A DNA stretch of 63,763 bases, filler included, from Folioceros fuciformis (lineage: Eukaryota): NCBI GenBank assembly GCA_049999805.1. It is 8 parts of 8 records of this genome, joined end to end, with 100 filler letters (N's around TTAATTAATTAA, not from the genome) between each part and the next. Parts side by side here need not be neighbours in the genome. Positions count along the whole stretch, not along the records: positions 25,456 to 32,639 come from JBNGIO010002889.1; 7 more parts are not named here. One strand, written 5' to 3'. Each line of letters starts with the position of its first letter. The stretch's first letter is position 1. This document shows, in pieces, positions 10,618-54,114 of this stretch. The position numbers and the translations under genes are program-made. The notes under the pieces are model-generated. The model worked only from the letters and a program-made list of their open reading frames with translations, made no database searches and was not told where the DNA came from.

Positions 10618-13283
10618 GAATTTTTCAGCAAGAGGACCGTCTGAGACTCCCCATGCCGAAAGTCATGCAAGCAAGGCTCATCTCCTCTTCCCTGTTGACG
10701 TCCGAAAGTACGGGGCCCCGAATCACATCCTGCCCGCGATCGTCGCTGGGAGATCCATCTCCAGCCAGCAATTCTGTTTGATGGAATGGCGTTCTTGCAA
10801 CGGAGCTGACACTGGCGAATCCTTTGTTTGCCCATGTCGACGGTCGATTCCTTGAAGTCGGGGAAGCGGGACCTCTTGCGAGAATACCAGTGAAACCATT
10901 CTGTTCAGTCCACTGTGCCCACCACGGATCCTGGTACCCATAGCGCGCCTGAATCGCTACACCCCAAACAGCCATGGGGCTTTAGAACTTATGAAATGTC
11001 AGCGACAGCAGGTAGCTGTTACACATCCTAAGACCCATACTGGCACTGAATGTAAGTCGTTCCCACGCTTTTTGCCCCGGTACCATGTTCACACATTCAG
11101 GGTCTGCCAGAACAAGAACAAACTGATCATAAATGAGGTCTCTCACGGCATCACCTGGTGATACGCACAACTTGCAAATACGAAGTTCTCATAGGGAGAG
11201 CAAGCGAAGCACGCACAAGCGAACATAGTGACACCCTGAACCGAGCTCAATTCCGACGACTGTGCAATCTGAATGTAAGAACGCGAGTTTCCTGAAGTTC
11301 TTCCTGAATTTGCCGGGCTTTGCACCCAATAAAAGAGTTTGGATTTGGTGGTCAGTCTGAAGGTGGTGCGCAATCATCTTTGCCCGTTACAGATGCATTC
11401 AATCATGACGCACGGTGAGAAGGATCGGGACTCGGTTCCAGACGCGTGATGACAAACGCCTCCAACAGTGCAGAGAGCAGGATGCAGGGTAGAGGGTTAT
11501 CTGAGCGCTGTTCTGAGAGCCATCTTGTCTTTCAGGTGTACAATCGTGACAAGCGGGCCAGTGACGAGGAGGAAACATCTGACTGAAACGACCAAGAGAG
11601 GAAGGTACTCGTAAGAGGTCATCATGTTCGCCTTAAAAAACCATTTGAGAAGTGGCTCGACCATGCACCAGAGGAATCTGTAGAAATTTTGTCCACGTCC
11701 TGCACAGGCACAGGGACGGATTCACAGATGGACCTTCGAAACAGATCAGGGGTAGACAAGCTGCAGTAAGGAACAAGAAAGCCACGATCAATGATGTGCT
11801 TGTACAGCAACCTTTCCTTCACGCCAGCTGCCATGGCTAGTAAGAGCAATTGCCCGACGAAGAGTGGGCCTTAAAGTCCGAATTCGTCGCAACACCTCCA
11901 GGGACCCCGTCGACGCCCGTTAATCATGAACCTGGAGTGCAAAGTAGGTCACACTTCGAATGTCCTCCGCTGTTTCTCATCGTCACTTCCCCCGATTCCA
12001 AGACGACAAAGGTAAGGCCACCAAGCTCCTTGCTCCGTGTCGGCGAGCGATTTCACGCAGACATGCAACAAGACAAAACAGAGTGGCGTGGGGGAATGGA
12101 ACACACGAGACGAAACGAAGAGAGAAAAGGGAGGGGAGAAAGCACGAATCTCCTTTTGGAGGTTGCAAGGCGCGGGATGGACAGCAATTTCCTTATTTCT
12201 GGCATATCTCGTACTGGTTTCTGTCTGTTGGACGTTTTGTCCCTAGAATAGAGGAAGATGGCCAAAAATATATCTTTTTCTTATCCTCTTTCCTTTATTG
12301 TATGCTATATCACAACCGCTTCACATCTAGAATAAAGATTCCATTTTCGTGAGTCAAAAAGTAAAGTCTCCTAGCAAAGTGGAAAGCCAGGTGGGAACCC
12401 TTTATCTCCAAGATCTCTCTAGACTAAGCAGCAAGACTCGAAAGAAAGAATTCATGAAGGTTTATATTAAGACTTTGCAGCTTTTCCGATGACATGCGTC
12501 CATAATGGATAATTTTTTTTTTACAGGGTGAGTTCAAGTATTTCCTGATTCCATTAAAGGTAGTCCAGGTAAGTTTGGGCATGTAATGCACTTGGTATTG
12601 TAGGTGACAAAAATGTGTCTTAGTAAGATCAAAGGGTAATAGAGTAGTAGAGCCTTAACAACAAATGATAACAAGGAAATGGGTTAGTTTTTAATTTGCA
12701 ATAAGGACTAATAGCATTACAACAACTTAAGAATGTAGCTTGAGACCATCAGCAAAGAAGTACGGGGCCTATGTGGCAATGAAGAGATTGAAAAAATTGC
12801 ATCTATCATGTGAAGTTGGAAGAAAGGCAACACATGCAAAGAGGGAGACCCATCTCGTTCCAATGCTTGAGGTAGGCTTTAGTAAAAACTTTTAAAAATC
12901 CTTGTCCATGGTCCTATACGTCACATGGCAGGAGGCTGAAAGTATATTCATTATTTTTCTTGGATTCAATTGACTCTCTCCGTTACTCCATCAATATTTG
13001 GATAGTATGCAATACTCATGTATAGTTACACATTCAAACTTCGAATCAAGTGCTACCGAAATTCTCTTGGGCTTGCCTGTGATACTTGTACATGTATGTT
13101 TTGAACAAGTTGGCTGCCTCAGAAGTTGTCACTCTCTTCTTAATGGGGATGGTGCTTGCTTGGTGAATCTATCCACCATTGTCATGATAGTTGTATACTC
13201 ATTAAACATTAAACAGTGTTTCTTACTAAGGGTCTGATTATACTCAAAGGGTAATTTGCCAATAGTAAACGTGGAAGGTTCTG

Positions 13284-16204: not shown

Positions 16205-16304
16205 NNNNNNNNNNNNNNNNNNNNNNNNNNNNNNNNNNNNNNNNNNNNTTAATTAATTAANNNNNNNNNNNNNNNNNNNNNNNNNNNNNNNNNNNNNNNN
16301 NNNN
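16205..16304. other. Artificial contig spacer
   Basis: N44-TTAATTAATTAA-N44 (stops in all frames). Confidence 0.97.
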
Positions 16305-18790
16305 GATGCTCTTGTTTGTGCACGAGGTGGTCAAGGGGAGCAAGGTGGACTGGGGGAAAATCTTGTACACCAGGATGGACGAGGAAACGCAAAATCTAAC
16401 CCTGTCCTCTCCCCGACCTTCAATGATTTCTCCCTTCCTAATTCCATATCTACTACTATGCTAATCTCGTGTCTGAGCTGGAGGTGCTCGCGTCACTGCA
16501 CATGTGGAGACCAATAAGAGATGTAAAGTGGAAGCCCGCCGAGCCAGCGGAAGCCGACTCCAGCAGCTGGGAGTCAGGCGATGTGGATAGTTCGGAGGAG
16601 GGGACCCCTGCCAGGCAGAAGAGAAAGGCAGGGTCAGGGAAAAAGGCTCCCGCTAAGAGGAGACGGACTAGTGGTCATATTGTCAGAAAAGGAAGCGGGT
16701 TCGCATCACAGGAGGTAGTCCTGGAATGGGCTGAGGGGGAGCAGGGAGCTGTTCAAGAACTAGCAGAGCAGGAATCGAATGAAGAGGAACTAGAAGCACC
16801 CCAGGAGCATATGCCAGCTATGGAAGTGGCCCCTCCTAAGGGGAGGAGTGAATTAGGGCACATTCCAGAGTAGGAAGTCTTCCCAGAATGAGAAGTTTTT
16901 AGAAAAATTCCTCAGGTGGAAAAGTTGCAGGCAGGGGAGCTAGAGAAGTTACGAGCGCCGCTGGGAAGGCAGATAACCAAGAGGGGAATGGCTCCTATGG
17001 GGTCGCAGGAGGTGAATCTGCCAAGACTAACCTCAGCCACGGTGCAGGCACAAGCGAACGTGTTGGACCAGGTGGCTAGGGCATTGACTTGGCTGAGCAG
17101 GCAGGCAAAGAAGGAGGCTGAGGCCCGAAGTAGGGAGGCAGAGGCAAGAGGAAAGGAGTCCGAAAGCCTGGAGACAGCTGGCGGAGTCTGAAACGGCACG
17201 AGGGCAAAGCACAAGCAGAAGAAGAGGTGCGCCAGGCCAAGGTAGAGATCCAGGCGCTGATGGAGCAACAGGAGTCGCTCCTAGCTCAGGTGAGGGTAGC
17301 CCATGAGACTAATTTGGAAATACAGCATGAGATAGCTAAGGCTCAGGAGTAGGAGATGGTTGCGATGGAACAAGCCCAGAAGCTGGCGGATAGGTACAAA
17401 CGGGAGCGGGACGAGGCCAGAGAGCGAGTAAAAGGGAAGGGCAAGACTAGGTGTAGTGGTCGGACGATGACGCCGGTAGCCGAAAGGGCTACCGGTGGTC
17501 CAACTCCAGATCCGGTAGCCGACAGGCCTACTGGTAGTCGGGTTCCAGAACCGGTAAGCGGAGGGGCTACCGGTAGTCTCGCGATGCCCGAGGTAGTTGA
17601 AGGGACTGCCGGTGGGGGAGGTACGACGTCGATACTTGAAGCCACGACCCCGGTAGCCGAAGCAGTAAGGGCAGAGGCGCTTGTGCACAGTCGTTCCAGG
17701 TTGGTGACTCGCACCAAGCGGATTGAGCTGGGGAAAGTAGTAGCAGCTGGAGGGATGGAGGACTCTCAGGTACCCCAGGAGAGCAGGGGTCAGGCAGCCC
17801 GAGGTAGCCCAAGGGAGGAAGGGGTAAGCACCTCCTTTATGATAGAGGGTCAGGTTATGCTGCAGTATGAGGAGGAGGCCTCTTATGTGCCAGGCCTCTA
17901 TGCAGAGGGAGCCCGAGTTCTGAAGCTGTTTTTGTATGTACGTATGGGCATAGGAGGGACGCGGGGCTACGGCCTACAACTGAAGACCCGCAAGGGCATC
18001 TGCTACTACCGCTAGCGGGTATGGGGGCTGCCTCATTGCTATTCTAAGGCAATCTTGGAGGAACTGACGGAGGAGGAGGTGCAGCGGTGGGTTGAACAGG
18101 AGCATGTCCTCATCCTCACTAATCGGCAACGGAGGGAGGAGAGGGATTTCCTGCAACGAGACCCGCTTGCGCCGCCTCCAGCGAGAGCCTGTAGCAGCAG
18201 TAGTGAGGTGGAGGTCCTGTGGGAGGACCTGCCTGACCAGCGGCGAGGTAGGAGGCCAGAGGCGGACCAGTAGGGGGAGGAGCACGACGGCCAGGAGGAA
18301 GGCGCCAGTGGCAAAGAGGGAGGCGATAGTAATTACAATCTAGACTAGTTTTTTTTAGATTGTTTTTGCTTGGACCTAAGCCGCTCAGAATTTAAGAGCG
18401 CTGACTGACCCCAAACAGACTTTATGGTGGAAAGACCGCCACTACCGTGTACAAGAGGCCAGTTTGAGGCCTCAAAAAAATCAGCAAGAAACCAGCCAGA
18501 CATTACGACCTTATGGAAGCCTAGCGATGGCCGTTGCTGGACAGGAGGTCCAGGCAAGCGAGCGCACGTAGTGTTCTGAGGGTGTGGGTGCAGGTGGTGG
18601 ATGCTCCGTAATCGGAAACCAGGAACGAATCGGGAGGAGAGACCTCACAGAGTGGGAGACGAACTCCCCAGCTATTCCCGTGGCGGTTGTATGGAATGGT
18701 AAAGGTGCTGGAGGCCGAATCCACGAGTCCGGAGTAGAAGTGGATACCCCTTCCCTTAGCCTCCGGTGACCCACCATTCCTTCAATTTCG
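16305..18790 (+). mobile_element. Repeat family X copy 1: decayed extra-ORF region of a probable Gypsy-type retroelement
   Basis: Homologous to 29313-31950 and 61270-62622: FVHEVVKGSKVDWGKILYTRMDEE..., coiled-coil, TGS-repeat linker, GVSTSFM..LQYEEEASYVPGLY..LKLFLYVRMG domain and a conserved downstream block. Confidence 0.7.
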
Positions 18791-19994: not shown

Positions 19995-20564
19995 CTATTT
20001 CTGAACTTGCTTTTCCTCCTTTCGTTGAAGCGTTCTAACCATAATTTGATGATCTGTCCGTAGCTCTTCCAACACGTTTGTTAGAAGGTCAACACTACAA
20101 CATTGAGCTTCATCCACACCTCGCCACCAAAAGCCATTGTTGATTTGTTGGCCTTGGTTGGAGGTACCATTGAGAGCCATCTTTGATAGCCTCTCCTCTT
20201 CTTCAAGGAGCAGAAATTGTTTTTCCTTCTCGCTGATTATTTGTGCATTGATTTCATTGTATGTGTGTTGCAACACATCCAATCCTTCAAATCTAGAGGC
20301 TTCCAAGTAGGTGGCCATATCAGGAGCATCTCCTTCAAGCTCTCCTATATTGTGTAAGTGCTTATCAACCACATAGTCCACATTAGGGTTGCCGTAGGAG
20401 AAGGTCTTCCCAACTTGCGAGAATACAACTATAGCAATCTCCGCACCGCACATAACAGCCATCTCATGAGCCTTCTTGAACAATCCCCCTCGCCTCTTAG
20501 AGAAGGTAACTTGCCGTGTGGTGGGGTCCTCAATTTTCTCAATGTCTATTTTCCTCCTTCCCAT
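19995..20564 (-). CDS. Type I (M-alpha/AGL62-like) MADS-box transcription factor
   Basis: Intronless 189-aa ORF starting [60 protein letters not shown]. No K-box. Has a coiled-coil and FWW motif typical of M-alpha proteins. Confidence 0.93.
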
Positions 20565-20838
20565 GTGCTCGAACTTTCATATGTCAGAAAGGGTGTGAGG
20601 AGAAAGGGTGAGAGGATATCGAACTGTAGTTGAGCGCGCCCACAACGTTTCTATAAGGGGCATGAAAAGAAAAAGTTACTATAAGAAGAAGTGGGAAAGT
20701 CCAAAATCCTTGCACCTTAAATATGACCAACACACCATACATGCGCCAACCCTAAGATGGTTCAAGTAGATAATCTCATCCCTATGGAGAATGCCTGTGT
20801 ATATGTAGGTGGTCTTTATTCCCTATTAGGATTGTACG

Positions 20839-22299: not shown

Positions 22300-25200
22300 T
22301 GAGTGAGTGTTGTAGAGGAAAGGTTGGGAGATTAGGTTAGAATAGTAGCTAGATTATGGTGAGTCGATAGGGTAGGTAGGTTGTGTGGTAGATAGGACGT
22401 GGGCTCTGGTCCCTGGGCCAAGGGTAAGTAGGCTAGAGGGTAGCCGGATGAGGAATGGGCCGGCTGTTCGGCTAGCCACACTGGTCGGCTGACTTGACCT
22501 GGGTGAGACCGGGCAGTGGCGGCTGAGGCAGAAGGTATAGGAGGCCGATCGGCTGATCTAGCTAGGCTAGTTGGTGGATCCAGTCGGTTAGGCAGCCGGC
22601 TGGCCGAGGAAGGAGTAGGCAGCAGCCAGGTAGGCGACCTGGCTGCTGGCAGGCTGCATGGCCAGACCTAGGCCGGGGTCCTGGCCGGAGCTGCGAGGCA
22701 ATCAACCAAGTAGGCTGCTGGAGCGCTGGCGGGATGCAAGCTCAGGCAGCCAGGCTTACGCGCTGCCTGCAAGCCAGGGGGTACCCTGGTCAGGTAGGCA
22801 ACCAAGTGGATGGAAGGCGGTCCTGCAGGTCCAAGCTTTAGGCCGGTTGGTGGATCCAGCCGGCCTGGACAATAGACCAGGCTAGAGCTTAGAATAGGCC
22901 GGGGAGGCTGGGGGCCTGGCTAGCCGGAGCTAGATGACTTGGGAGTCCACAGAGGCATAGCAACCAAGCTAAGTCCGAGCAAAAGACAGAAGAAAGGTGA
23001 CGGGTCGTTGAGGGGTCTCGACAACCGTGAGCCTGGGACGGATGCATGCGGGCTGGGTAGAATCTAGGTGGAGGGCCAGTAGACTGAGCCGCCAGCAGCC
23101 AGGCACTCTGGAAGGACGGCTGATCGGGCGGCTTAGCTGGTCACAGTTGGGAGCAGAGCAGCAAGGTCGAAGCCAGAAGCAGGCCAGGCCAGAGGCAGCA
23201 CCAAAGCCTGGCCGGCATGGATGAGGTTGGTTGCAGGACCGATGCGTCAGGATCAGCTCCGGGGCTGTGGCGGTCCAGAATCAGGATGCAAGGCAGGCCA
23301 GCTTGCAGGCACCTGGACCGATCAGCAGCAGGTCGGCGGGGCCAGCAAGCTGGCTGGAGTCCAGGTAGGCGACTCGGCACCAGATCAGGCGGGCCACGGG
23401 GGTCTAGCAATTTGGTTGGTTGGATGGGCTGTGGTTAGCTAGCGGTCTGGCTGCCCTATGACCGAAGTGGTACAAGGGGTCGACCGGGCTGCAGGCAGGC
23501 ATCAGGCAGCCAACGTGCCGGCTGATGATAGGTGACCTTGCAGGTAGACAGCCGCCCAGGATTTTGCCTCCACAATGGGGCTGCCCCAACTGGATGTAAC
23601 TGGAGGCAGGCGGCGCAAGTTCAGCCTGCATGCATGTAGTGCCAGCCAGCTGGGCATGGTTGCAGACGGGTAACCGGGCCAGCAGCGGCTGGTCAAGGTG
23701 GATCCTGCAAGCAAGTCGGCGAGCTGGATGTATCGGGTGCCCTGCTGGGTCAGGGCTGGTGGTGACGCGACATCCGGATCTGGGGGCGACGCCAAAGCCA
23801 AGGCAGGGTGTACAGCCGGGGATAGTTGGCTGTTGGTAGATCTGAAGGCCAAGCCGACTGCGGGCTGCCTGGCAGATCTTGGGGCTGGGCAGCCAAGTGG
23901 TGGGCAATTCGGCATCTAGGCTGACTCGTGGGCGGGCTGCATGCAGGCAGGCGCCTCGCCGGATCGCCAAGGTGGGTGGCAGGGTCCGGCCGGGCTGGGT
24001 CAAAGCGGGTTGGTGTAGCCAGTTCGGCCTAGTTGGTGCCTGCCGATTGATGGCCGGGGGGGATCCAGGCCGACTGGCTGGGCTATGGCCAGTCGGCAGA
24101 ACATGCAGGCCGAGCAGGCGGGTGGCCTGAGCGACTCGAGACCAGAGCTGGATCTGTAGTGGTAGCAGGCCGAGGTACCGTCGGGCTGGTCACAACTGGG
24201 GAGCAGCCGACGAGGTAGGCGGCTTGGCTGGAGGTGGCCGGACAGCGAAAGCCGGTAGTTGAGGAGCCTGGTGGCGTTCGGTGGGCTCGGTGGAGATTTG
24301 GACTGGGAAGATGGGCAGCTGGGCAGGTCGAATGGCGGCTGGCCGAGCCGGATCTAGCTAAGCTGGTTGGTAGGCAGGCTGTGTTGGGAGTGAAGCGCCC
24401 GGCTACAGGAGCCAGGCGGCCAAGCAGGCGGGCTGCCTTGCTGGATCGGGAAGCTAAGGGTCTCGGGCCAGTCGACCGGGGCAGGTGCTCGGTGATTGAG
24501 GATGCCCCGGCGGCCATGGCCATAGGTAGAGGGCCAGCAGACCCAAGCCACCAGCAGCCAAGCATCCTGGAGGTGTGTCGGTTGATCGATCTAGGAGGCC
24601 GACTGGTTGGCTAGCCAAGCGGGCCGGTGACGAACGGACCCGGCCGACAACGCCAGGCAGGCTGTGTTGGGAGTGAAGCGCCCAGCTACAGGAGCCAGGC
24701 GGCCAAGCAGGCGGGCTGCCTTGCTGGATCGGGAGGCTAAGGGTCTCGGGCCAGTCGACCGGGGCAGGTGGTCGGTGATTGAGGATGCCTCGGCGGCCGT
24801 GGCCACAGGTAGAGGGCCAGCAGACCCGGGCCACCAGCGGCCAAGCATCCCGGAGGTGTGTCGGTTGATCGATCCAGAAGGCCGACTGGTTGGCTAGCCA
24901 AGCGGGCCGGTGACAAACGGACCCGGCCGACAACGCCAGGCAGGCGGGTTGATTAGGCTAGAGGCAGGCAGCCAGTAGCACACGCGGGTGGCGACCAGGT
25001 CCAGGTGGCCTAGCAGGCGGCCTGATCGTGCTATGTGGTCCGGGTGGGCAGCGTGGCAAGGGATCTAAGCGGGCAGGCGAATTGAAGTAGGGACCATCCG
25101 ACAAGTGACCCAGCATTAGCAGCGCAGGCAGCATGGTCGGCTGCGGGCAGATTGGTGGCTGATCGACTGGCGAGTCGGATCTAGCCATCCATCTAGTCCG

Positions 25201-25355
25201 CGGCCTAGCCAGAAGCCTGATAGGGGGTGGGTTGCGGAGCAGAAGGAGGAGGGCGGCTGGCCTGACGCGGCCATGCTGCCCTTGCGCCTTCACATTGCAA
25301 AAGACAACTCTCATGTTGATAGGGACAGGCAGGTTGCAGGCAGCTTCCTCGAGGG
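22300..25355. repeat. GC-rich low-complexity non-coding tract (probably retroelement internal region)
   Basis: Dense ggcc/ccgg/ctag/gatc/ggcaggc words with G-biased + strand. No coherent protein in any frame. Confidence 0.5.
24372..24945. repeat. Tandem duplication, 283-bp period
   Basis: gctgtgttgggagtgaagcgccc at 24378 and 24661, with near-identical sequence following each. Confidence 0.9.
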
Positions 25356-25455
25356 NNNNNNNNNNNNNNNNNNNNNNNNNNNNNNNNNNNNNNNNNNNNT
25401 TAATTAATTAANNNNNNNNNNNNNNNNNNNNNNNNNNNNNNNNNNNNNNNNNNNN
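25356..25455. other. Artificial contig spacer
   Basis: N44-TTAATTAATTAA-N44. Confidence 0.97.
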
Positions 25456-25500
25456 AAACCAAACCATACCACTATTAACCCTTTTTCAACCAAAACAAAC

Positions 25501-26262
25501 TACTACCCCAAACTTTGGAGGTTCATATTTGGTTTGCTGGATGGACAATTTAACGGATTGATATTGCAAACTGTTTTCTCAAGCTTCGCCAAGAAGACAA
25601 CTTTTGAGGATTTTCTGCTTGAGGTCATGTATGGGGTGGAGGATGCGCACATGGTGAGGGAGGCGATGCAAAAATGGTGCAAAGGGGGTGGTCTGGTTTT
25701 GTTTGTCTGAGATAAGACAAACATGTCAAATGAGCGAGAAGGTTTTGAAATTGTGGAGTACATAATTGTTGCATGGTGCATGAAGGAGGGAAGTAGTAAG
25801 GGCCACACGTCTATGATGCCAGGGCAACATCAAGGAATCTTTAACACGGGTAGGTCCATCATCGCACATGACACTATGGTGAAGAAACATGTCTACCTAT
25901 CGCATGACAAACGAGTTGTTTGCCCATATCAGAGGCCCTTGGGATTGATGGACAGGCTTATCCACATCTTCAGTAAAGAGGGGAAATGAGTTGTCAATGC
26001 TTGTTTTGGTAGCGGCACTAAACTGTTGGCAACGTTGCTTGTTGGCAGAAACCGCGTAACAATCGAAGAAGACAAGCGATGCGCAGCGTATACCCCGCAA
26101 AGAATCCACGGCTATGATGTTCTGCTAGATGTAGAGGAGGAGATGACATTCAATGTGCATCAACGAGGGCCATCCCAATTCTGGGCTAAGGAGGTTTGCA
26201 TCAGCGAAAGAGACAACTCTTCAGCACAAGTTGTGTTACTGACGTCGAAGAGGCGGAGTTGA
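25501..26262 (+). pseudogene. Beta-class DNA N4-cytosine/N6-adenine methyltransferase (N6_N4_Mtase-like) remnant, N-terminal catalytic motif not present
   Basis: One frame reads ...LFV*DKTNM...EYIIVAW...CPYQRPLGLMDRLIHIFSKEGK*VVNACFGSGTKLLATLLVGRNRVTIEEDKRC. This matches the W-x-K, HPxQKP..L..lI...S..GD.VLDPF.GSGT and GR..I.iE motifs (X, I, II) if both TGA (25708, 25987) derive from TGG. Confidence 0.75.
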
Positions 26263-27231
26263 AAGACGAGGCTCAGCGAAGACTTGGAGCCAAGACAAAA
26301 AAACCCTAGAGCAGGTTTGGGAGGGGACAATATCTGATCAGGAAGATATGGAAGATTCACGAGTGGATGAGAAGGCGCCGGAGGAAATTGACAACTTTGA
26401 TGTTGAGGAAGAAGCAAGATTACAGGATGTTGCTATTGTGTTCGACTTCGAGGCTGCAGAACATGCTGGAGAGCTTGAGAGTTTCAACATAGGGTTGGGA
26501 GTCATAGTTAGATGTGTTGTTCACTTTGCAGTAGGTGTTTAGTGACATACCTTTTAATAGTGGTTAATGAAAAACATGTGGGGCCCATAAGTGAACCCAA
26601 CGTCACTGAAATGGTCCTCGGGGGAGACAGTGCCAACGGACCGACGCCCTCTCTTCAGCGCGAGAATTATCTTGCATACAAAGCACAAGTTCAGGCTGGG
26701 CAATACTAAGAAAAGAACCATTGCCTGCATAGAAACTAGCAGAATTTGTTTATTTGTGCAAGGTGTAAATTTTGTCAAAAAGGTCTACCCCCTTTAGAAG
26801 AGGACACAACATTCCCCTGCTTGCAAGTTTATGGCTTTAGTGATGAAACAAAATAAGTTGTTTGAGTATTGGAAAACAGAGGGACCGGAGATGTTTGAGG
26901 TTTTGAAGTAGCAAAGTTGTTTGTGGCATACAGACATACATTGAGAGACTTCGAAATATATGCTTTTGAAATTGCTATGGAAGTTGTCTATTTAAAATGG
27001 TATGAAAGTTGTTCTATGAAGTTGAAACAACCAAATATGAGAGCACACATAAAACAAGTGTACCTATAAGCTACTGCCAAATGCACACATCCTTGACTTG
27101 CAACGTACCACCGAACTCCACTACCTACTAATTAACATGCCACACCATAAGCACACGTGGAGAACATGCTATATATTTGAGTGGTTTAAGAATTGTGTAT
27201 GCGTGTGTCTCCTTGTCTGAGCACACTTTCA

Positions 27232-28393
27232 TCAGGCCACCAAATCCAGACATGCTACTTTCTTGAAGGGAGTCTTCTTGCTAAGATAGCCGTCTCTCTT
27301 GCCTTTTTGGTAGGCAAGTAACTTGCCTACCTTCTTTGATGGGCAAGCAACCTTGCATGGAGCCTTCCTGCCTTGTCTAGAGTCTTGTTCACTTCTTGTC
27401 CTTCTCCCTTCCAAGTCTGTCACAAGTCCTAGGAGTTCCTTTGTCATCTACATCCAACCTTTTGTACCACTTTTGCTATGGTCACCAAGGCCTCCTTCAA
27501 GTAACCCTGCAAGCATCGCTGCAATTTTCAGTTGGTTTTCCATCTGCAATTCATTTCGATGGAGCTCATGCTGCAACATTACTTTTGCATGTGAAGCTAG
27601 TTTGTCATTTTGGCTGCTTCAATCTTTGCTAGACAATCAGCGAAAGATGATAAGCCTGCTGAAATTTCCTTTCCCACTCTTGAAATAAAAGACCTTCTAG
27701 GCTTGACTTTTTTGCCTTGTACAATATCACTTAGATTGTCCTATTCTACAATTTTTAGCTTACTTGGGGATTCTGCACAGTGCTCTTCTATAGGCTCTTG
27801 AGCTTTGGAAGTGATGTGATGAGGTGCATATAGTGAATCACCTTGAGAAGCTTGCTCCAAATCAAATAAGTAAGTTCCACTCTTTGCAATATCTGAAGGT
27901 GAGTTGGTAATACCTTGTGAAGGCTTTGACTTGCTAGGATCCCAGGCACTTGGAATCCCTTGGAATTTAGGGTTTTTTACAAATGTTTTCTACTGCATGG
28001 AAGTGAGGCCATGAAAAATTGATGTTCCTTCTTCTTTCGGTTCCACTTCTCAAGATTTTCCATTTTCATCTTGCACTTTTTTGCACTCACACTAAGAAGG
28101 CCATAGTTGTTGCTAACTTTAGTAGCCACCTCATTCCAGTGTCTTCCAGTGAGATTACCTTGCTTGAGGTGCACCAGGCGCATCTCATGATAGGCTTCCA
28201 TCACAACAATTGCTGCCTCTTCACTTCACATGAGGTTGCCATCACGCTTTGATTTGGCTATAGCATGTTGCTCCTCTAAGCCTGCAAGGAGATCATTGTC
28301 TTGGTCTTCAAAGGCTTTTGCGTCCTCCACAACAGTGAGATGTCCTATGTTTTGTCTTGTAAAGTCTTGGAATTCTTTCAGTTCCTAATCCAT
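27232..28393 (-). pseudogene. Myb/SANT-like (trihelix-type) DNA-binding protein remnant with C-terminal coiled coil
   Basis: From ATG 28393: ...M*SEEAAIVVMEAYHEMRLVHLKQGNLTGRHWNEVATKVSNNY...SAKKCKMKMENLEKWNRKKK, later HAKVMLQHELHRNELQMENQLKIAAML. Contains stops and frameshifts. Confidence 0.75.
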
Positions 28394-28846
28394 GACTAAC
28401 TGATGAAGTGTTGATAGGCAAGGAGGCAAAGTATGTGGCGGAGGCTAAGAAGAGGCTAGAGTACTTGTGGTGAAAGCTAGAAGTTTTGCTGGAAAGGCTA
28501 CAAGAGTCTTCACCCTCGCGAGAGGTGGACGTGTGCGAGAGCGATGACCTAAGTTGTATGATTATTAATTATAATTATACCATCACGGGTATACAATGGA
28601 ACTAGAATAAGTCCTTGAATCGTTTTTTTGGACCAAATATAGAATACTGCAAACTCACCGTGAGCGCAATTTGCTACTTTCTTTAATGGAAACAAACCGT
28701 TTTTTAGAGCTTTTCTTTTCTTTTCAGGAAACGGCGCAGTACTTGAACTGCCATTGTGAAAGGCCCTTCTCAAGTAGCGTTTTGTAGAGGAAAAAAACTT
28801 TGGACACTCCCATTTTGAGTGACAGAATGAGTAGGCTGCGATTTTT

Positions 28847-29030
28847 TGTGTGAAGGAACGAGCGAATCAGCTTAGTATGTGAATAAGATGGGGGTATTCA
28901 TACCCAAAAATGGCCTTGGTCTTTGGGTGTTTGGGATAGCGAAGACCACGATCTGGAAGTGAGTGAGTGGGGGTGTCCTTGGGCCTTGGTGGTTCGGGGG
29001 CATTTAGGAGGTTATATATATCCCCCCTTG
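28847..29030 (-). repeat. Possible 3' LTR with polypurine tract of family X element
   Basis: Minus strand reads caagggggga (PPT-like, 29021-29030), then ~170 bp ending ...ccttcacaca. No second copy is in the window to confirm it. Confidence 0.35.
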
Positions 29031-29312
29031 TGGAAATAAGAAATAGAAATGAGTAGGGAAGGGGGCTAGCTAGTTGTGGATTTAGGAAAAAGGATGGGTT
29101 GAGGTGATTGGGCGACGATGGCCAGTGGGGCAACCGTCGCGAAAAGGACGACTGGTGGTAGGCTAACTGGCAGTAGTGAGAGAAGAAAACAGCCAGTATA
29201 AAAATCCTAAAGGGAAGTCTAGAGGGGAATTAAGTTAGTCTTCGAAACGTGAAGGGCAGTAACCCTGGAGCGTGAAGGCGGCTGGAAGGGAAGCAGATGC
29301 TGAGGCAACAAG

Positions 29313-31950
29313 ATGGGCCGAGGCAAGCAGCGAGTGCTCAGCGAGAGAGAGGAGGGACCGCAAAAGCCGAAGCACAAGGAGGAGATAGGCAGGATGAGGT
29401 CACGTCCTGAACTGCTGCCTGGAGTACCAGAGCAGGAGGGGGAACCTCCTGTTCCCCAGATTGACCTACTCTTGTGGCCCAACATGGAGCATTGGAGGGT
29501 TAGAGCAGGAGGGTTGGTGGATGAATTGGGTATGGGTTTCATGACCCAGAAGTGGAACTACGCAGCGCCACAGTTGGTCAGGGAGTGCACCCTGAGGTTG
29601 AGGGAACCTGTTCGTGAGAAGGGGATCAGAGGCAGACCGCAGGGGTGGAACCTGGAGCTAGTGAGAAGGGTGTATGGCCGTGACCAGCGAGAAGAGGGAG
29701 GATTGGTGCTAGAGTCCCTGAGGAAACGGGGGGGGTACAGGAGACGCTGAAGGACTGCTCAAACCAGGCACGAAGAAGGAGGCTAACGGATGGTTGGTTC
29801 GCGACATGGCGAGCCCGCAGCTGATGGGTCTGGCCAGGTGGTTTCTTAGTTTTCTCCAGGTTCGCAAACAGGATTATTTGTCTGACCATATGCCCTTGTT
29901 TGTGCATGAGGTAGTGAAGAGGACTAGGATTGATTGAGGAAAAATTTTGTATGCTAGGATGGACGAGGAGAGGCAGAATTTGACCCTGCCCTCTCCTCAG
30001 CCTTTGATGATTTCCCCGTTTCTAGTGCATATTTATAGTTATGCTAACCTGGTGTCGGAACTGGAGGTGTTGGCTTCACTGCACATGTGGAGCCCAATCA
30101 ATGATGTAAAATGGAAGCCTGTTGAGCCAGTGAAGGCTAACTCCAATAGTTGGGTGTGGGGACAGCTTGGAGGGGAAGGTTCCTGTCAGGCCTAAGAAGA
30201 GGACAACAGCTTAGGGGAAGACCCTTGCCAAGAGGAGATGAGTCAGTGGGTAGAGCACGAGAGGAGGAAGTAGGCCGGAGACACCAGAGACAGCCCTGGA
30301 GCAAACTGAAGGTCAGACAGAGGAGCAAGATGTACAAGAACAGGAGGTAGAACAGGAGCTCGCTAATCAGGGGGTTATGGATCAAGGACTGGAAGAGCAG
30401 GGGCAGGATGAAGCAGGGCTGGAGGGGTCTCATGAGCCGACTTTAGCCGCCAAGTTAATTCCTCCCAGGCAAAGGCCGAGGTCCAAGCGCTAAGGGAGCA
30501 ACATGGGATCCTACTAGCTCAGGTGAGGGAGGCCCATAAGACTAACCTGGAGATACAACAGGAGATGGCCAAGGCGCAAGAGCTGGAAATAGCAGCAGTG
30601 GAACAGGCCCAGAAGCTGGCTGACAGGTACAAGCGGGAGCAAGACGAAGCCAGAGAGAGTGTGAAGGGGAAGGGTAAGGTTGGGCGCCCAAGTCAAACGG
30701 CGACCCCGGTAGCTGAAGAGACTACCGGTAGTCGAGAAGGGGAACCGGTAATCGAGCGGACTACCAGTAGCCGAGTAGTCGCCAGGGCTACTGGTAGCCC
30801 GGCTGAGCCTAGAGTAGCCGAGGGACCAGCCCTGGGAACCAAGGAAGAAACAGCGAAGGCGCCTGAGCTTAGGCGCTCCAGGAGATTGATCTGCACCAGA
30901 AGGACAGAGCCGGAGGAAGCAACAGCTGGACGGGTGAAGGACCTTCAGGTACCCCAGAAAGATGGGGAACAGACAGCCCACGGTAGTCCAAGGGAGGAAG
31001 GGGTAAGCACCTCCTTTATGACAGAAGGTCGGGTTGTGCTGCAGTATGAGGAGGAGGCTTCCTATGTGCCAGGTCTTTATGTCGAAGGGGCCAGAGTTCT
31101 TAAACTGTTTCTGTATGTACGTATGGGCACAAGAGGGACGCGTGGCTACGGCCTGCATCTGAGGACCCACAAGGGACTCTACCGCTACAGCTGGTGGATG
31201 ACAGGCCTGCCCCATTGCTACGCGGAGGCAGTTCTGGAGGAGTTGACAGAAGAAGAGGCCCAACGATGGGTAGAACGGGAGCCTATTGCCATCCTCAGTA
31301 ACCAGAGGAGAAGGGGGAACAGTGGTTCTCAGCAGCAGGGCCCACCTGTGCCGCCACCGGACAGGTCCAGCAGCAGTAGTGACGTAGAGATCCTTTGGGA
31401 AGATCTGCCCGATCAGCAGAGGGGTAGGAGAGCAAGAGGGGGACCAGTGAGAGGAGACGCGCGAAGACCAGGGGGAAGGCGCCAGCGGCGTGGAAAGTGG
31501 CGATAGTAATTGCAGGCTAGGATAGCGTTATTTTTGGAATGCTTTTACTTGGAATGGAGCGGCTTGGAATCTAAGAGTGCCGACTGACCCCTGACAGACT
31601 TTATAGCGGAAAGACTGCCACCACCATGTATAAGAGGCCAGTTTGAGGCCTAGGAAATTAGCAAAAATCAGCCCAACCACCCAACCTTGCAGGAGTCTAG
31701 CGATGGCCGTTGCCAGACAGGAGGTCCAGGCAAGCGCGCGCACGTAGCAACCTGGGGGTGTGGGTGCAGGTGGTGGACGCTCCATGATCGAGCCAAGGGA
31801 TGAATCGGGAGGTGGAACCTGGGCGAGTGGGAGACGAGCTCCCCAGCTATCCCGGGGGCGATCACGTGGAGTGGTGAGGAAGTCGGGGCCGAATCCGCGA
31901 GTTCAGAGTGGAAGTGAGTATCCCTTCCCTTAGCCCCGGTGTTTCAGCAT
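29313..31950 (+). mobile_element. Repeat family X copy 2: most complete extra-ORF (about 29313-31506, disrupted)
   Basis: MGRGKQR...QLVRECTL...IRGRPQGWNLELVRRVY...LFVHEVVKRTRID*GKILYARMDEE...ISPFLVHIY, then acidic region, coiled coil and the conserved C-terminal domain. Resembles accessory ORFs of plant Tat/Athila-type Gypsy elements. Confidence 0.7.
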
Positions 31951-32639
31951 TCCTTAATTCCAAAGGAGAAGGCCCGGAGAGGTAGGACTGAGTATGGAGT
32001 CAAGAAAATGTGAACAAGCGATGAAGCGGGTTCAAGAGAGGCAGCGAGTGTGAGAGCGAGACGTTGAGCGGTCGTCAAGACAAGACCACGCGATTGGAGT
32101 GTGTATGTGAGAGACGAAGAGTGGTGGCAGAAACATGGGATGGTTGCATGGTGGAAGCTGCCGAGATCCTTGTGAGGGTGAAAGAGACTGGAGACTATAA
32201 TAAAAAAGGGGAAATGTTGGAGGCGTCGCGGAGAGGCACTGTGAACCAAGGGCGTGTGCCAAAAGTGAGAGAAAGTGGAACCATGAAAGAGGAGTAGCCG
32301 AGTTGGGAAGGTCGAACGCCGATAAGACTCTGGCGAGTGTGTAGTTGAAAGGCAATCAAGAGCAAAACGACCTAAGTTTGGGCTTGAGGGTTACGTGAAT
32401 AGATTGGGAACTGTACTGCCAGAAGGCCCTCGCGACTCTCTGAGGGCCGATGTGTGTATGACGGACGTTGGTGCGTTTCGGTCGAGGCTATGAGGGGTTG
32501 ACGAGTAAGGGCGGAGGTCTGTGAGTATGTAGGTGAGAAAGACTGGAGGTAAGTTGCTAGCGGTTTGAAAGGCAAGGACTGTAAAGTAAGTATTAGAGGA
32601 TAACCCCGAGGTAGAGGAGAGAGAAGGAGCGAATTAGAG

Positions 32640-32739
32640 NNNNNNNNNNNNNNNNNNNNNNNNNNNNNNNNNNNNNNNNNNNNTTAATTAATTAANNNNN
32701 NNNNNNNNNNNNNNNNNNNNNNNNNNNNNNNNNNNNNNN
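32640..32739. other. Artificial contig spacer
   Basis: N44-TTAATTAATTAA-N44. Confidence 0.97.
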
Positions 32740-34594: not shown

Positions 34595-37500
34595 TGGTAT
34601 CAGAGCCAGAGAGAGAGTGCTGGTGCCACCGGTGGCTATGGCGGGGGTTTGAGGCTATGGCTGTGAGCGTGAAGGTGGCTGGCAATGCAAGCCATTGAGA
34701 GGCGCAGGAGGCGCAACGGCGTAGGCGGCGTAGGAAGCCGCAACAGGCTCTACAGGCGCAAGAGCGCGCGAGAGGCACGACAGGGAGAGAGACTCAGGAG
34801 GAGCGTAAAGGAGCCTGAATCATGGCTAATGTACAGGGATCAGACAATATCTCTCAAGTCGTGGGAGAGAAGTTGGATAACAAGAATTTTGCTTTGTGGA
34901 AGTTCAAGATGAAGAACTTCTTGGTAGGTAGAGGCTATTGGGACCTCTGCACAGGTGATGAGAGTGAACCAGAGATGGATCGTATTCCATCACAGGAGCA
35001 AAAGACTGCTCACAAGCATTAGACTGAGAGAGCATATAAAGTCTTACACTGGCTCTCCTTAACCATTTCAGATGCTATGGTCATACAGATCATGGGATGT
35101 GAGTCTCCGACGGATGCATGGGACATTCTCATGAGGAACTATGGAAATGTCACACATGCTAGGAAAATCCAGTTGAAGCAGCAGTTCAACAACTTGTCAC
35201 GAGGTAGCAGATCCATAATCGTGTATACAACAAAGGTGAAGACCATAGCTGATCAGCTTGCTACAATCGGTGCAAGAGTGACGGAAGATGACATGGTTGC
35301 AGTTACTCTGAACGGACTTGGCAAGGAGTACAAGTCCTTTGACACATCAATCTCTGTGAGAGTTGAGTCCCCAAGTTGGGATGAATTGGTTGCTTTGTTG
35401 CTGCATGAGGAAGTTAAGCTTGGTCTGAACATAGGTTCAGGTATATCTCAAGGGAGAGACACTGTTTTGTTTTCTAACCAGCGTGGGAGAGGCCACAGAG
35501 GTCGTGGTTCATTCTGAGGACGGGGTGATGCTTGGAACACGCAAAATCAGCAAGGCCAGAGAGAATCTGGAAGTTTTAGAGGCGCAGATAGAGCCACAAG
35601 AGGAAGAGATGGTTCTTTTCAATCTCATGACCATTCCAATAGAGACAAGGAGTGTTACTACTGTGGTAAGGTTGGTCATATTGCTAAGGACTGCTATAAG
35701 CAGCAAGCAGACATGAGAGGAAAAGGAAGTCAGCATGGGAACTATGCCTCCTCTAGTATTGCTGGAAATGACCAGGATAGGTTGTTTGCCATGCAACATC
35801 TCTCTGAACAGGATGGGCAGAATGATGAGAGATGGTACATTGATTCAGGAGCATCAAACCACATGACTCCGCATGGCGAGTGGTTTAACAAGATGGATGC
35901 AGGTCCCCATGGTCATGTGTGTACAGGAGAGGACACAGAACATGACATAAAGCACAGAGGAATTGTTCCTCTTAGGATGCCGAATGGTCAGCAGAAGAGT
36001 CTACAAGATGTGTTGCATGTTCCAACCATTACGAAGAACGTGTTGTCTATTGGACAGATGGCTGAACAAAATCTACAGGTTCGATTCAATAAAGATGGAT
36101 GCTTTATTGAAGAATATGACAGAGGGCGCAAACTGATTGCTAAAGGTAGTAGGAATGGACGGATGTTCACTCTGGATGCATCCATTCCAGAGATAAATGC
36201 AGCAATGTTTGCAAATGATGCAGGTGCCATACTTGATGTTGAAATATGGCATAAGAGGATTGGGCATGTGAACATAGAGAAGCTGAAATCTATGCAACAG
36301 AAAAGCATGGTGGAAGGATTGCCCAAGTTCAAGTATGCTGATCTTGGTCATGTGTGTTGTGCATGTCAATTTGGAAAACAGTCAAGGTTTCCATTTGTGC
36401 GACACGTGCAGAACAGCTCGAGACCTTTGCAATTGATACACTCTGATGTATGGGGTCCTTCATAGAATGCATCATTTGGAGGAGCCCACTACTATGTCTC
36501 CTTCATTGATGATTTCAGCAAGTACACATGGCTGTACATATTGAAGCATAAGGATGAAGTGTTCGAGTCTTTCAAGGACTTCAAAAAGCATGCTGAAAAT
36601 GAATTCAGCTGCTCCATCTCTTGTCTAAGATCAGATGGAGGGGGAGAATATGTCTCAAATGAGTTTGACAGGTATCTTGCAGATCATGGTATACGAAGAT
36701 AGCTGACTTGCAGATACACACCACAGCAGAATGGTGTTGCAGAGAGGAAGAACAGGGTAGTCATGGAAACAGCAAGGGCAATGCTGAATGAGAAGTGCTT
36801 ACCTAATGATTATTGGGCAGAAGTAGTGATGACAGCAGTGTATGTACTGAATCGAACTCCTACGGCAGGAATTCATAATGCTACACCAATTGAGAGATTG
36901 TATGGCTATAAGCCGGATATTAGGCACTTGAAAGTGTTTGGGTGCATTGCATATGTGCATGTACCTGATGAGAAGTGTAGGAAGCTGGATCCTAAAGCAG
37001 TGAAGAGTGTTTTTCTGGGGTATGCACGAAATAGGAAGGCATATAAGTGTTATGTGCCATCCACACATGAGATCCTGATAAGCAGGGATGTGGTATTTGA
37101 TGAGTTAGCCTCCTGGTACAGCAACTTAGTTGCACTACCCTATGACGAACCCACAGGGGAGAGTACTGTTAAGAGTACTCCAGCAAAGAGTGAGGATGAC
37201 CAATGGTGGATCACCAACGGTGAATCCATAGTCTGGAAGACTGCGGAATGGTAAACTGAAGACCACTGACCCGGATATGTCAGTGAGGGAGAGAGTAGAA
37301 AGCAGCAAAACTGGAAATGAGGGATATGAATCTTCAAGTAGTGAGAGCATTGACAGTGAGTTTGGCATTCCGTATGTGGAAACGCCAGATGCTAAGGAGC
37401 AACAATATGCAAGGCAGGTTCAAAATGAACCAAGACCAAGGAGATCTGAGAGGGTTAGGAAACCCATTGACAGGTACACCTATACAAGCTACAATGTGCA

Positions 37501-39074
37501 ACATTATGCTTATATAACAAGGGTCACAGCTTATAAGAAGCCAACCAAGTTTGTTGAGGCAGTGACAAATGATAAGTGGTGTCAAGCCATGGATGAAGAA
37601 TTCTCAGCATTAGTTGAGAACGAAACGTGGGATTTGGTTCAATTGCCTGATGGCAAGGTTCTTATTGGTTCTAAGTGGGTGTACAAGCTGAAGTTCAAGT
37701 CAGATGGAACGCTGGAGCGTTACAAGGCCAGGTTGGTTGCAAAGGGATATGCACAATAGTATGGTCTTGATTATGAGGAAACCTTTAGTCTAGTAGCCAA
37801 GATGACAACTATAAGTCATAGCATTAGCAGCAACTAAAGGATGGAAGTTATGGCAAATGGATGTCAAGAATGCTTTCTTGAATGATGAGTTGCAGGAGGA
37901 AGTGTACGTGGAACAGCCTGAAGGCTATGTTCATCCTAAGTTTCCAACATACGTCTGCAAACTGAAGAAGGCATTGTATGGACTCAAACAAGCACCTAGA
38001 GCATGGAATGCTCGTATCACAAGCTATTTGAAGGAGCGAGGGTTTGTGATTGGAGACGTAGATCACAGTCTGTTTGTAAAACAGACCAAGGTAGGACAAG
38101 TGTGTCTTGTCGTTTATGTTGACGACCTGATCATCACAGGAGATGATGCAGATGGTATTGTAGATGTCAAGGCGAATCTGCAAAAAGAGTTCAAGGTGAA
38201 GGATCTTGGTGAACTCAGATACTTCTTAGGAATTGAGGTAGTGTCTACACCTCAAGGAATCTGGCTATTCCAAAAACAATATGCTAAGGATATGTTGCAG
38301 AAGTATGGCATGGCAGATTGCAAAGCGATGGATACACCATTGGAGCAGAATGTCAAGCTGCAAATGGATGTAGGAGCTGAGCTGGAAAATGTGACTATGT
38401 ATCGACAGATGGTCAGAAGTTTGATCTACTTGACTATCACACGTCTTGACTTAAGTTATGCAGTGGGACTGATTAGTCAATTCATGCAGAACCCAAGGAA
38501 ACCGCTCTTGGATGCAGTTAGAAGAATCATGAGATATGTGAAAGGAACTACTGAGTTTGGATTGCTCTATGAGCATAGGAAGCATTTTGAACTGACAGGA
38601 TATACAGATGCTGATTGGGCTGGTTGTGCGTATGACAGAAGATCAACCAATGGATATGCATTCAGTCTGGGAAGTAGTATGATCAGCTGGCAAATCAAGA
38701 AACAACCAACAGTTGCTTTGTCAAGCACAGAAGCAGAGTATCGAGGAGCTGCAATGGCAGCCTGTGAAGCAGCTTGGTTGCAGAAGTTGCTAATGATCTT
38801 GGAAATATAGTGAACAGCAAGGTTACAATCTACTGTGATAACATGAGTAGCATGAGGTTGGCTACTAATCCTGTGTTTCATGCTCGTTCGAAGCACATAG
38901 AAGTACATTATCATTTCATCAGGGAAGCGGTATTATCTGAGAAGATAGATCTTCGGCACGTGAAGACCGAAGACCAGGTAGCAGATATCTTTATTAAGTC
39001 GCTAGGTAGAGATAAGTTCTTACACTTTCGTGAACTACTTGGAGTGTTACAAATAGTCTGAGCTTGGGGGGGAG

Positions 39075-41954: not shown

Positions 41955-42054
41955 NNNNNNNNNNNNNNNNNNNNNNNNNNNNNNNNNNNNNNNNNNNNTT
42001 AATTAATTAANNNNNNNNNNNNNNNNNNNNNNNNNNNNNNNNNNNNNNNNNNNN
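41955..42054. other. Artificial contig spacer
   Basis: N44-TTAATTAATTAA-N44. Confidence 0.97.
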
Positions 42055-46930: not shown

Positions 46931-47030
46931 NNNNNNNNNNNNNNNNNNNNNNNNNNNNNNNNNNNNNNNNNNNNTTAATTAATTAANNNNNNNNNNNNNN
47001 NNNNNNNNNNNNNNNNNNNNNNNNNNNNNN
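46931..47030. other. Artificial contig spacer
   Basis: N44-TTAATTAATTAA-N44. Confidence 0.97.
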
Positions 47031-52400: not shown

Positions 52401-54114
52401 TTCGGGGATGCTTGCCTTTCATACAAGCATCACACAAACCAAATTCTGCCTTCTGGAGCTCCATTCCTGTCAGAAGCTTCTTCCACTCCATCTCCAGGAG
52501 AAACTTCAAGTTGGTATGCCCAAACCGTCTATGCCACAGTAAGGCATTTCCACATTTCTTTGACACTGTCAGAACTTATTGGTCGTTGGGAACCTCCATC
52601 TGGTACAAGTTCCTTGTGCGGTCGCCTTTTGCCACCACATCGCCGTGCATTTGTCCATTCTTCATAAACAAAACTTCCTTCTTCGTAAAAAGGACCTGCG
52701 GACCTGCATCGGTCAATAATGCGACGGACATGAGATTTCTACGTCGATGCGGTACAAACATTGCTCCTTCCATTGCCTTGATCTCGTTGTCGAGCAATCT
52801 GAGTCTGTACTCCCCCACACCCTCGACGCCTATCTCGCTATCGTTCCCTAGGCGCACCACTATCTTCTCCCTCCTGTAGTCTTGAAGGAGCTCTTTATCC
52901 TTTACCATAAAGGATATACATGCAGAATCTATCGTCAGGTATCGTTTTGCTTGTGTACTGTAGCACGCGTGCGATACTTCTTCTGTGAGCATTGCCTCTG
53001 CAACCTCACCTTTACTCTCACCCTCCGTGAGATGTGCGGTCTTTCGATCCTTGCAATCCTTCTCATAATGACCATACTTGAAGCATTTCCGGCACTATCC
53101 CCTCTTCACTATTCTCTTGTCCTTCTGTTACTGCGAGGACTCCCCTTTCTTGTCCTTGTTTCGGTTGTTCCGTCCCTTCCCCTTGATGAACATCGCATGC
53201 TCCAGACCAATGGAAGATCCCGCCATTGCGTCCGATTGGCGAGTCTCCTTCGCCAACATCTTAGAGGTGGCCTCCTCCCATGTGAGAGTGTCTTGGGCTA
53301 TTAGAGAATCTATGAACCCTGACCAAGCTTCGGGCTAGGACGATATAGAAACATCTTCTATATGTCCTCTTGGATAGCAAAGCACTCATTAGCTGATGCT
53401 AGCGCTGTAGACAGTTCGTGAAAGATGTCAATGTGCTTTCGCAAATCGTCTTCGTCTGAATACTTCAATGTTGTCACATGAAAAAACAAGTGAAATACTT
53501 CACCTGCTCCCTTTTGGCCATATTTCTCATCGAGAATATTCCAAATGTACTATGTGCCCTTATCTGGTTCTCCGACCTTCAACTGGACTGCCATAGAGAG
53601 ATTTGTATATAGAAGAGCTGTACCCTTGTGGTCTCTCCACATCCATTCTCTCTACGCTCTCCCCTCATCTTTGGGTTTCGGTTCTTTGCCCTCGGTAATG
53701 CCGTACGCGTCCTCTGCCATCAGCAGAACCTTCATGGAACTCCGTTCCATCAAACACTCACGTCCTCAAGGCCGCGGTGGTTACTGAGCCGATCACCATC
53801 ACAACTCCATCCTCTCTTATCAAGTCTCGCGATTAGTGTTCCTGCTCTGATACCATGAAGGAAACAACTCAGACACAACACTGCCTGGCAACGCACAGGA
53901 TCAACACAGTTAGCAGACACAAGCAGAGGCTATGGGTGACACACGCAATAGCACCACTGGCTTAGATGGACTCGAAAGTACAAGGCAATATGGTGCACAG
54001 TGTGCTACATATATAGCCTTTAGGCTAGGCAACTATCGAGAAGGTAAGCCCCAGACTCGAGAGTGCAATATCCTAATATACTAGAGTGAGTAGCAGAGGA
54101 TTGAATCTCTAACA
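49471..54114 (-). mobile_element. Full-length Ty1/Copia LTR retrotransposon (family B), inactivated
   Basis: LTRs 49471-49729 and 53856-54114, PBS (rc gctctgatacca) 53844-53855, PPT next to 49729, near-TSD atgac/atgat. Motifs WHRRFGH, HSDLCGP, HKARLVARGF and SIYGLKQ. Confidence 0.96.

Follow-up and report, generated by a model that had tools for sequence, protein, structure and literature searches.

To our knowledge, very few prokaryote-type DNA amino-methyltransferases outside MT-A70 have a shown role in eukaryotic nuclei; bdelloid N4CMT and Marchantia MpDN4MT1 are the clear cases for N4-methylcytosine (4mC). This text deals with the relic of a beta-class DNA amino-methyltransferase gene in the assembly GCA_049999805.1 of Folioceros fuciformis. 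The window, i.e. the whole stretch of 63,763 nucleotides that was analysed, consists of eight unplaced contigs joined by spacers, and the third of them (25456-32639, JBNGIO010002889.1) carries the relic at its start. Among the systems described so far, MpDN4MT1a and MpDN4MT1b cluster with prokaryotic N4C enzymes and carry the motif TSPPY, according to the accessible part of the preprint (bioRxiv 10.1101/2021.02.12.428880). For N4CMT, the accessible text of its description reports a C-terminal chromodomain and no eukaryotic homologues (PMC8885841). A 2015 survey of eukaryotic adenine methyltransferases contains, in its accessible portion, no land-plant clade of the kind treated here and few such enzymes in land plants (PMC4738411). 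The DAM methyltransferases of eukaryotic retrotransposons have an Asn-Pro-Pro triplet and are absent from Streptophyta, as stated in the available part of the report (bioRxiv 10.64898/2026.05.21.726589).

An earlier note, made from the sequence of the window, had read a decayed beta-class amino-methyltransferase in plant nuclear DNA by joining two open reading frames (ORFs) through two in-frame TGA codons. Both the joint and the family hold. Read from 25456, the frame is interrupted just twice before 26260, each time by TGA (25708-25710 and 25987-25989), and the stop-to-stop ORFs 25711-25989 and 25990-26262 share the frame of 25456-25710; the ORF starts quoted before (25723 and 26026) are the coordinates of the first ATG codons. 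In the HMMER/Pfam comparison that the note had called for, the 268-residue read-through peptide, with X written at each TGA, matched PF01555 (N6_N4_Mtase) above the gathering cut-off (E 2.8e-06, 27.9 bits versus 26.7). Here, peptide residues 150-208 align with profile positions 162-214 of 221. The ORFs on either side of the second TGA, scanned singly, gave no Pfam match. Using phmmer on 1.84e9 representative proteins, 114 matches with E<=1e-3 were obtained, among them 7 with E<=1e-10; the best one (1.1e-15) covers query residues 25-230. In tblastn, 25 of 25 family proteins matched the relic frame with E values from 1e-10 to 2.5e-21 and a span of at most 25513-26244, and nothing else matched them between 25456 and 29300. 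The solved structures matched by the relic peptide are M.BceJIV (8urk, 9c3u), M1.HpyAVI, TTHA0409, M.RsrI and CcrM. A word-indexed search for homologues of the relic near its full length yielded 235 candidates, none of which scored. Stops are rare in the relic frame (3 per 245 codons; 5-17 in the other five frames), and 2000 shuffles had a mean of 15 stops and never 3 or fewer. The match is far beyond chance, and the relic of a beta-class DNA amino-methyltransferase is real.

The relatives that align with relic residues 25-230 have the permuted order: the catalytic region with motifs IV-VIII comes first, followed by motif X and motifs I-III. Their alignment to the window runs from 25540 (in one case from 25525) to about 26145-26244 and has no intron-like gap. 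It begins directly past the position of motif IV and continues through motifs X, I, II and III. Because of this gapless extent, what follows motif IV in the domain is present almost in full. The description 'C-terminal half' was therefore too narrow. The coordinates are compiled in Table 1.

Table 1. Features of the methyltransferase relic and its immediate surroundings (positions in the window).
Feature	Positions	Strand	Remarks
End of a very high-copy repeat that adjoins and truncates the relic; ends ...TTCA	25456..25525	.	from word depth and contig divergence
5'-truncated intronless pseudogene of a eukaryote-type beta-class (PF01555) DNA amino-methyltransferase	25526..26262	+	motif IV remnant F-G-L at start
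Family motif W-x-K-x-N, here TGA-D-K-T-N; first in-frame stop	25708..25722	+	Trp in 18/20 family rows
C-P-Y-Q-R-P, motif X of the family ([NSC]PYQKP) with K -> R	25921..25938	+	HPTQKP in prokaryotic relatives
Second in-frame TGA, at the Trp of the family motif E-G-D-W-V-x-D	25987..25989	+	from two family alignments
Motif I (S-adenosylmethionine binding), N-A-C-F-G-S-G	25996..26016	+	G-x-G kept, Asp -> Asn
Acidic tract, 17 D/E per 51 residues, in a different frame from the relic	26348..26500	+	

How the copy was damaged can be followed residue by residue. Fifteen of the 20 family columns that are conserved in at least 80% of the rows are identical in the relic. The other five show Trp to TGA (25708), Asn to Ser, Val to Met, Lys to Arg in PYQKP, and Asp to Asn in motif I. 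The latter motif retains F-G-S-G (26005-26016) and has Asn at 25996-25998, where 24 of 25 family rows have Asp. The signatures of the family have recognisable counterparts: (TGA)-D-K-T-N, C-P-Y-Q-R-P and E-G-K-(TGA)-V-V-N. As had been suspected, the two TGA codons interrupt one gene, and both sit at Trp positions of the relatives. The second one is supported by a contig of the DNA sequencing run X1 that spans 25909-26193 with 0 differences. Motif IV is expected at about 25510-25535, and F-G-L at 25528-25536 is all that is left of it. Its loss at the contig start or to an insertion had been predicted, and the alignment places it exactly at the repeat junction at 25525. In the bin 25456-25695, the summed word depth amounts to ~44,800 in X1 and ~34,600 in X2, and it falls to 24-96 in the following bins. 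Past 25525, 25 X1 contigs and 21 X2 contigs diverge from the window with little agreement among each other. From the repeat end, the jump in depth and the diverging contigs it follows that the gene is interrupted by a high-copy element and that the assembly is broken there. The repeat end also occurs in contigs from what is guessed to be an RNA run; from its terminal CA we infer that it may be the end of a long terminal repeat. The relic locus makes no enzyme, because motif IV, a start codon and the whole upstream half are missing, two nonsense codons interrupt the frame and Asn replaces the motif-I Asp.

Two ways to rescue the reading frame were considered and dropped. If the organism read TGA as Trp, the standard code would not apply; the long plant ORFs of the window, e.g. 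a 952-codon frame for a pentatricopeptide repeat (PPR) protein, are open under it. U-to-C editing of TGA would yield Arg instead of Trp, and it is an organellar process.

The contig that carries the relic is genuine plant nuclear DNA. This is based on a shared dispersed repeat, on CpG depletion and on a plant-type gene fragment on the same contig. The dispersed repeat (29890-31959) recurs at 16306-18787 and 61290-62622, i.e. on two other contigs of the window, with 71-79% identity. CpG observed/expected is 0.53 for the relic contig and 0.40-0.63 for the others. A Myb_DNA-bind_4 (trihelix-like) fragment at 27977-28225 on the minus strand (E 9.2e-07) is located 1.7 kb downstream of the relic. 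Two runs labelled with the same organism each contain ~0.65 of the contig's sampled words. The seven spacers, N44-TTAATTAATTAA-N44 at 16205-16304, 25356-25455, 32640-32739, 41955-42054, 46931-47030, 57680-57779 and 62623-62722, join contigs that are not necessarily neighbours in the genome. As to the features themselves, the dispersed repeat contains a 356-codon ORF (30436-31506) without Pfam match and reaches depths of up to thousands. One contig that shares it has a type I MADS-box (SRF-TF) ORF at 19995-20576 on the minus strand (E 4.2e-23). The minus-strand ORFs beside the Myb_DNA-bind_4 fragment seem to belong to this gene as well, and diverged copies of the region occur in the reads.

Open reading frames for relatives of the relic exist in other streptophytes, and the reads of the same organism contain diverged copies, in line with the earlier expectation of a wider family. 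Eight of the 30 proteins looked up are named members of a clade that we call eukaryote-type: five from Chara braunii (GBG66685.1, GBG75370.1, GBG77312.1, GBG89295.1 and GBG86584.1) and one each from Ginkgo biloba (Gb_37443), Riccia sorocarpa (KAL3685543.1) and the hemichordate Ptychodera flava (XP_070539592.1, here P0057). The gene models of Chara, Riccia and Ginkgo have open frames, and in UniProt the plant proteins listed here go under 'DNA methylase N-4/N-6 domain-containing protein'. In Chara, five clade clusters with <50% identity coexist in one genome. Characteristic of the clade are a motif IV of the form D-[ILFV]-P-[YHR]-G rather than DPPY, a motif X of the form [NSC]PYQKP rather than HPTQKP, the motifs W-x-K-x-N and E-G-D-W-V-x-D-x-C-S-G-S-G, and often an acidic tail. 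In a quick maximum-likelihood tree (IQ-TREE, 39 rows, 259 columns), the relic and 25 family rows are separated from 13 prokaryote/phage rows with a Shimodaira-Hasegawa-like approximate likelihood ratio (SH-aLRT) support of 98. Several of these 13 rows combine D-L-P-Y-G with HPTQKP; among them, outside the clade, is P0118 with D-L-P-Y-G, which is named 'site-specific DNA-methyltransferase (adenine-specific)'. By tree and motifs, the relic groups with the eukaryote-type clade apart from the bacterial and phage enzymes and is no recent bacterial import. The label 'bacterial-type' given before is, hence, too simple. The proposal to read SPPY or DPPY at motif IV and to link the relic to MpDN4MT1 or N4CMT is not supported either, as the clade has a motif IV of its own. 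The clade sequences are public and uncharacterised. No description of the PYQKP clade was found in the literature searched; supplementary files, which were not covered, may contain one.

Two peculiarities were observed within the clade. P0001, P0002 and P0003 have D-L-P-R-G with Arg at the base-stacking aromatic position and may be catalytically inactive or have another role. P0057 from Ptychodera has a long branch and a degenerate PYQKP; its membership hints at a transfer between kingdoms.

Contigs from runs X1 and X2 match 25605-25906, 25985-26406 and 28064-28659 at ~86-90% identity, e.g. with 33 differences in 273 letters or 54 in 422. For those identical to the window, the depth is ~8-12, and the summed depth is 24-96, which does not equal copy number. 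We read these data as a handful of diverged copies in the genome. At position 25710, three X1 contigs (30.4 of 43.3 depth) and three X2 contigs (28.5 of 28.5) have G, which turns the first stop into TGG (Trp). One contig each of X1 and X2 skips 25955-26034, and this joint could be another broken copy. Judged from these contigs, intact paralogues in the same organism are possible. Run X5, which is guessed to be RNA, has no contig on 25526-26262.

The fold of the family was assessed on the AlphaFold model of P0004. Over residues 520-770, the predicted local distance difference test (pLDDT) is mostly ~70-95, with means of 60-95 for blocks of 10 residues. The model matches CcrM (Z 23.3, root-mean-square deviation 3.0, 217 aligned residues), M.BceJIV (22.3), M.MboIIA (21.3) and A. 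vaga N4CMT (20.4), and the CcrM alignment of the family profile comprises positions 77-246. Full-length P0004, P0010 and P0020 have two extra modules upstream of the methyltransferase domain. The first contains G-G-x-x-S-x-E-A-R, and the middle one is helical. The upstream modules have no tblastn match in 25456-29300 and would lie past the repeat junction. For the first module, a language-model protein atlas returned ParB_N in 13 of 30 matches (~0.93), along with DUF3723 and DUF6551. Pfam found DUF6551 in P0010 alone (E 0.007, below the cut-off) and nothing in P0004, P0020 and P0016. A PDB profile search gave nothing relevant for this module, and in phage tblastn and PHROGs the methyltransferase part alone was matched. 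Across the module, the P0004 model has a pLDDT of ~45-60, and all matches of the fold search are to the methyltransferase domain. That the first module is ParB-like is a lead from the protein atlas, not a finding.

As to the base modified, [DN]-[IL]-P-Y is the catalytic motif of the Erm/KsgA adenine methyltransferases. Because the nearest solved sequences are adenine enzymes, P0118 is annotated as adenine-specific and the Erm/KsgA motif resembles motif IV of the clade, we lean towards an ancestral enzyme that would have methylated N6 of adenine rather than N4 of cytosine.

Taken together, the locus is very probably a dead, 5'-truncated and intronless PF01555 copy of the eukaryote-type clade in plant nuclear DNA. 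The ancestral protein would have been an S-adenosylmethionine-dependent enzyme of the circularly permuted beta class that flipped its target base into a D-x-P-aromatic pocket and methylated the exocyclic amino group. In the relic, the high-copy repeat with its end at 25525 has cut off motif IV and everything upstream of it, TGA stands at two conserved Trp positions and Asn in place of the motif-I Asp. The family might spread, or have spread, with a mobile or viral element. We infer such carriage from the patchy range across kingdoms, the divergent Chara clusters, the intronless structure and the several decaying copies found here.

A number of observations weigh against parts of this explanation. 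The 7.2-kb contig has no transposon or viral hallmark and, within 25456-32639, no direct, terminal or inverted repeats; among the ORFs scanned on it, methyltransferase and Myb_DNA-bind_4 are the only Pfam families. A motif scan of IMG/VR with the family alignment gave 7 pattern matches, none of them confirmed, so that the mobile-element part is drawn from distribution. In the tree, the relic has a long branch (1.4), and its placement is settled to clade level only. Seventeen of the 25 rows lack an organism name, and we call them 'eukaryote-type' from their sequence features. The window's A at 25710 is found in X1 contigs (12.9 of 43.3 depth) and in no X2 contig there. The 15 of 20 conserved residues that are kept and the lack of a frameshift over 245 codons argue for a fairly recent inactivation; therefore, a working paralogue may exist. 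Finally, base specificity is not readable from the family, since the accessible part of the N4CMT report states that the PF01555 domain evolved 6mA (N6-methyladenine) or 4mC specificity repeatedly (PMC8885841).

The same conservation without frameshift, the diverged read copies with TGG at the first stop and the open-frame gene models in Chara, Riccia and Ginkgo would also suit a vertically inherited host family with intact paralogues in this plant as writers of 6mA or 4mC, possibly in male germ cells; swimming sperm occur in all of the plant hosts named. The earlier note had inferred that such writers may exist. This reading agrees with a dead copy at the locus and departs from our explanation in the nature of the family. 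Such a family is the strongest of the alternatives, and we still consider it rather unlikely. No intact paralogue was seen in the available reads, and the hemichordate member and the five divergent Chara clusters fit the spread of an element better than simple descent. Moreover, with Arg instead of the motif IV aromatic residue in P0001-P0003, not all members need be enzymes. Bolder, and in our view a long shot, is the idea that the relic stands for a eukaryotic clade, undescribed so far, of phage-like descent with a D-x-P-Y/H-G motif and N-terminal modules that are possibly ParB-like. In this case, Chara, bryophytes, the present genome and Ginkgo would have intact members that write nuclear 6mA or 4mC, either as a second plant system besides MpDN4MT1 or as an element that marks its own DNA.

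DNA viruses, giant ones or smaller integrating ones, often carry amino-methyltransferases, and an intronless multi-copy gene with a patchy distribution across kingdoms could be the remnant of such an endogenous virus. The nearest named neighbours in the atlas after a eukaryotic cluster, phage clusters with ParB_N and N6_N4_Mtase (0.88-0.89), provide leads in this direction. We regard a viral remnant as improbable: the contig has no viral hallmark gene, none of the 7 IMG/VR stretches was confirmed, and P0004 in tblastn against 50,697 phage records matches with the methyltransferase domain only, at 24-29% identity among the 15 matches listed. Metagenome contig scans with P0004 and P0008 resulted in 100 and 132 pattern matches, respectively, none confirmed. 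That the contig start stems from contaminating bacteria or phages, or was inserted from bacteria very recently, has a negligible chance; the earlier note had asked for contamination to be checked. PF01555 is mainly prokaryotic and the contig is small, unplaced and starts at a gap, but plant repeats link it to two other contigs, it is CpG-depleted, runs on continuously into the plant-type Myb_DNA-bind_4 fragment and has ~0.65 of its words in each of the two runs labelled with the organism, while the best prokaryote-type matches cover the C-terminal third only and the tree sets the relic apart from them.

Downstream of the relic, the acidic tract and a cysteine stretch had been read as a hint of eukaryote-style C-terminal additions. 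Both stretches exist, the latter as a literal C-x2-C-x2-C at 26755-26775 in a 38-codon piece between stops. Neither has a significant tblastn match to any of the 25 family proteins, and ORF 26243-26539 contains no Pfam domain, chromodomain included. Neither stretch has support as a domain. Acidic C-terminal tails are present in the family proteins P0007, P0008 and P0010, and the acidic tract may be a frameshifted remnant of such a tail.

Elsewhere in the window, the PPR frame mentioned above (7804-10662, minus strand) is intronless and of the PLS type, and its product shares 45-48% identity with proteins of the lycophyte Diphasiastrum complanatum, a hint of a lycophyte-like genome, and 33-43% with proteins from ferns, conifers, Ginkgo and Selaginella. 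At 23400-25350, a GC-rich stretch (GC 0.56-0.59) has long ORFs in whose translations the same blocks of peptide sequence recur, which points to a tandem or satellite-like repeat with a unit of a few hundred bases. By eye and from ORF translations only, copia-like gag, integrase and reverse-transcriptase frames, some of them broken, were recognised at 35023-38810 (plus strand), 39997-43863, 51775-53094 (minus strand) and 55628-59284. Rfam had 0 matches in the whole window.

The locus is an ordinary dead gene copy, and the family is a moderately interesting lead. The value of the locus is that it points to a little-studied PF01555 clade scattered over stoneworts, a liverwort and Ginkgo on the streptophyte side, with an acorn worm as its one animal. 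Activity of any member of the clade would be relevant to the dispute over 6mA and 4mC in plant DNA. Should a mobile element carry the family, the latter would form a DNA-element parallel to the retrotransposons with methyltransferases that were described in 2026.

The clade can be compared with four groups of known proteins. The relic shares with the clade proteins themselves the W-x-K-x-N, PYQKP and E-G-D-W-V motifs and a C-terminal R-[IL]..L..L.DE.QE stretch. In contrast to them, it is cut before motif IV and has two stops and the D to N exchange; its identity to any clade protein does not exceed 30%. The prokaryotic and phage N6-adenine enzymes (CcrM 6pbd, M.BceJIV 8urk, M.RsrI 1eg2, M1.HpyAVI 5hek and M.MboIIA 1g60) belong to the same Pfam family and have the same permuted order and fold; their beta-class structures are matched by the family profile with E 5.7e-09 to 1.4e-06 and by the P0004 model with Z 19.7-23.3. 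Some prokaryotic relatives even share D-L-P-Y-G instead of DPPY with the clade. However, these enzymes have HPTQKP as motif X, whereas the clade has PYQKP, show ~16-22% identity in structural alignments and lie on the opposite side of the SH-aLRT 98 branch. MpDN4MT1a/b and N4CMT resemble the clade as PF01555-type enzymes of prokaryotic origin in eukaryotic nuclei, and N4CMT is also matched by the family profile (E ~5e-06), in addition to its fold. What sets MpDN4MT1 (TSPPY) apart from the clade (D-[ILFV]-P-[YHR]-G) is the motif description in the accessible part of its preprint. N4CMT differs by its chromodomain, which Pfam does not find in the relic peptide and ORF 26243-26539. Finally, the DAM retrotransposon family, as portrayed in the available part of its report, parallels the clade in having a prokaryote-derived adenine methyltransferase domain in multiple copies in eukaryotes, with many orphan degenerate remnants. 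Its domain is a different one, and neither a reverse transcriptase nor an integrase is found beside the relic.

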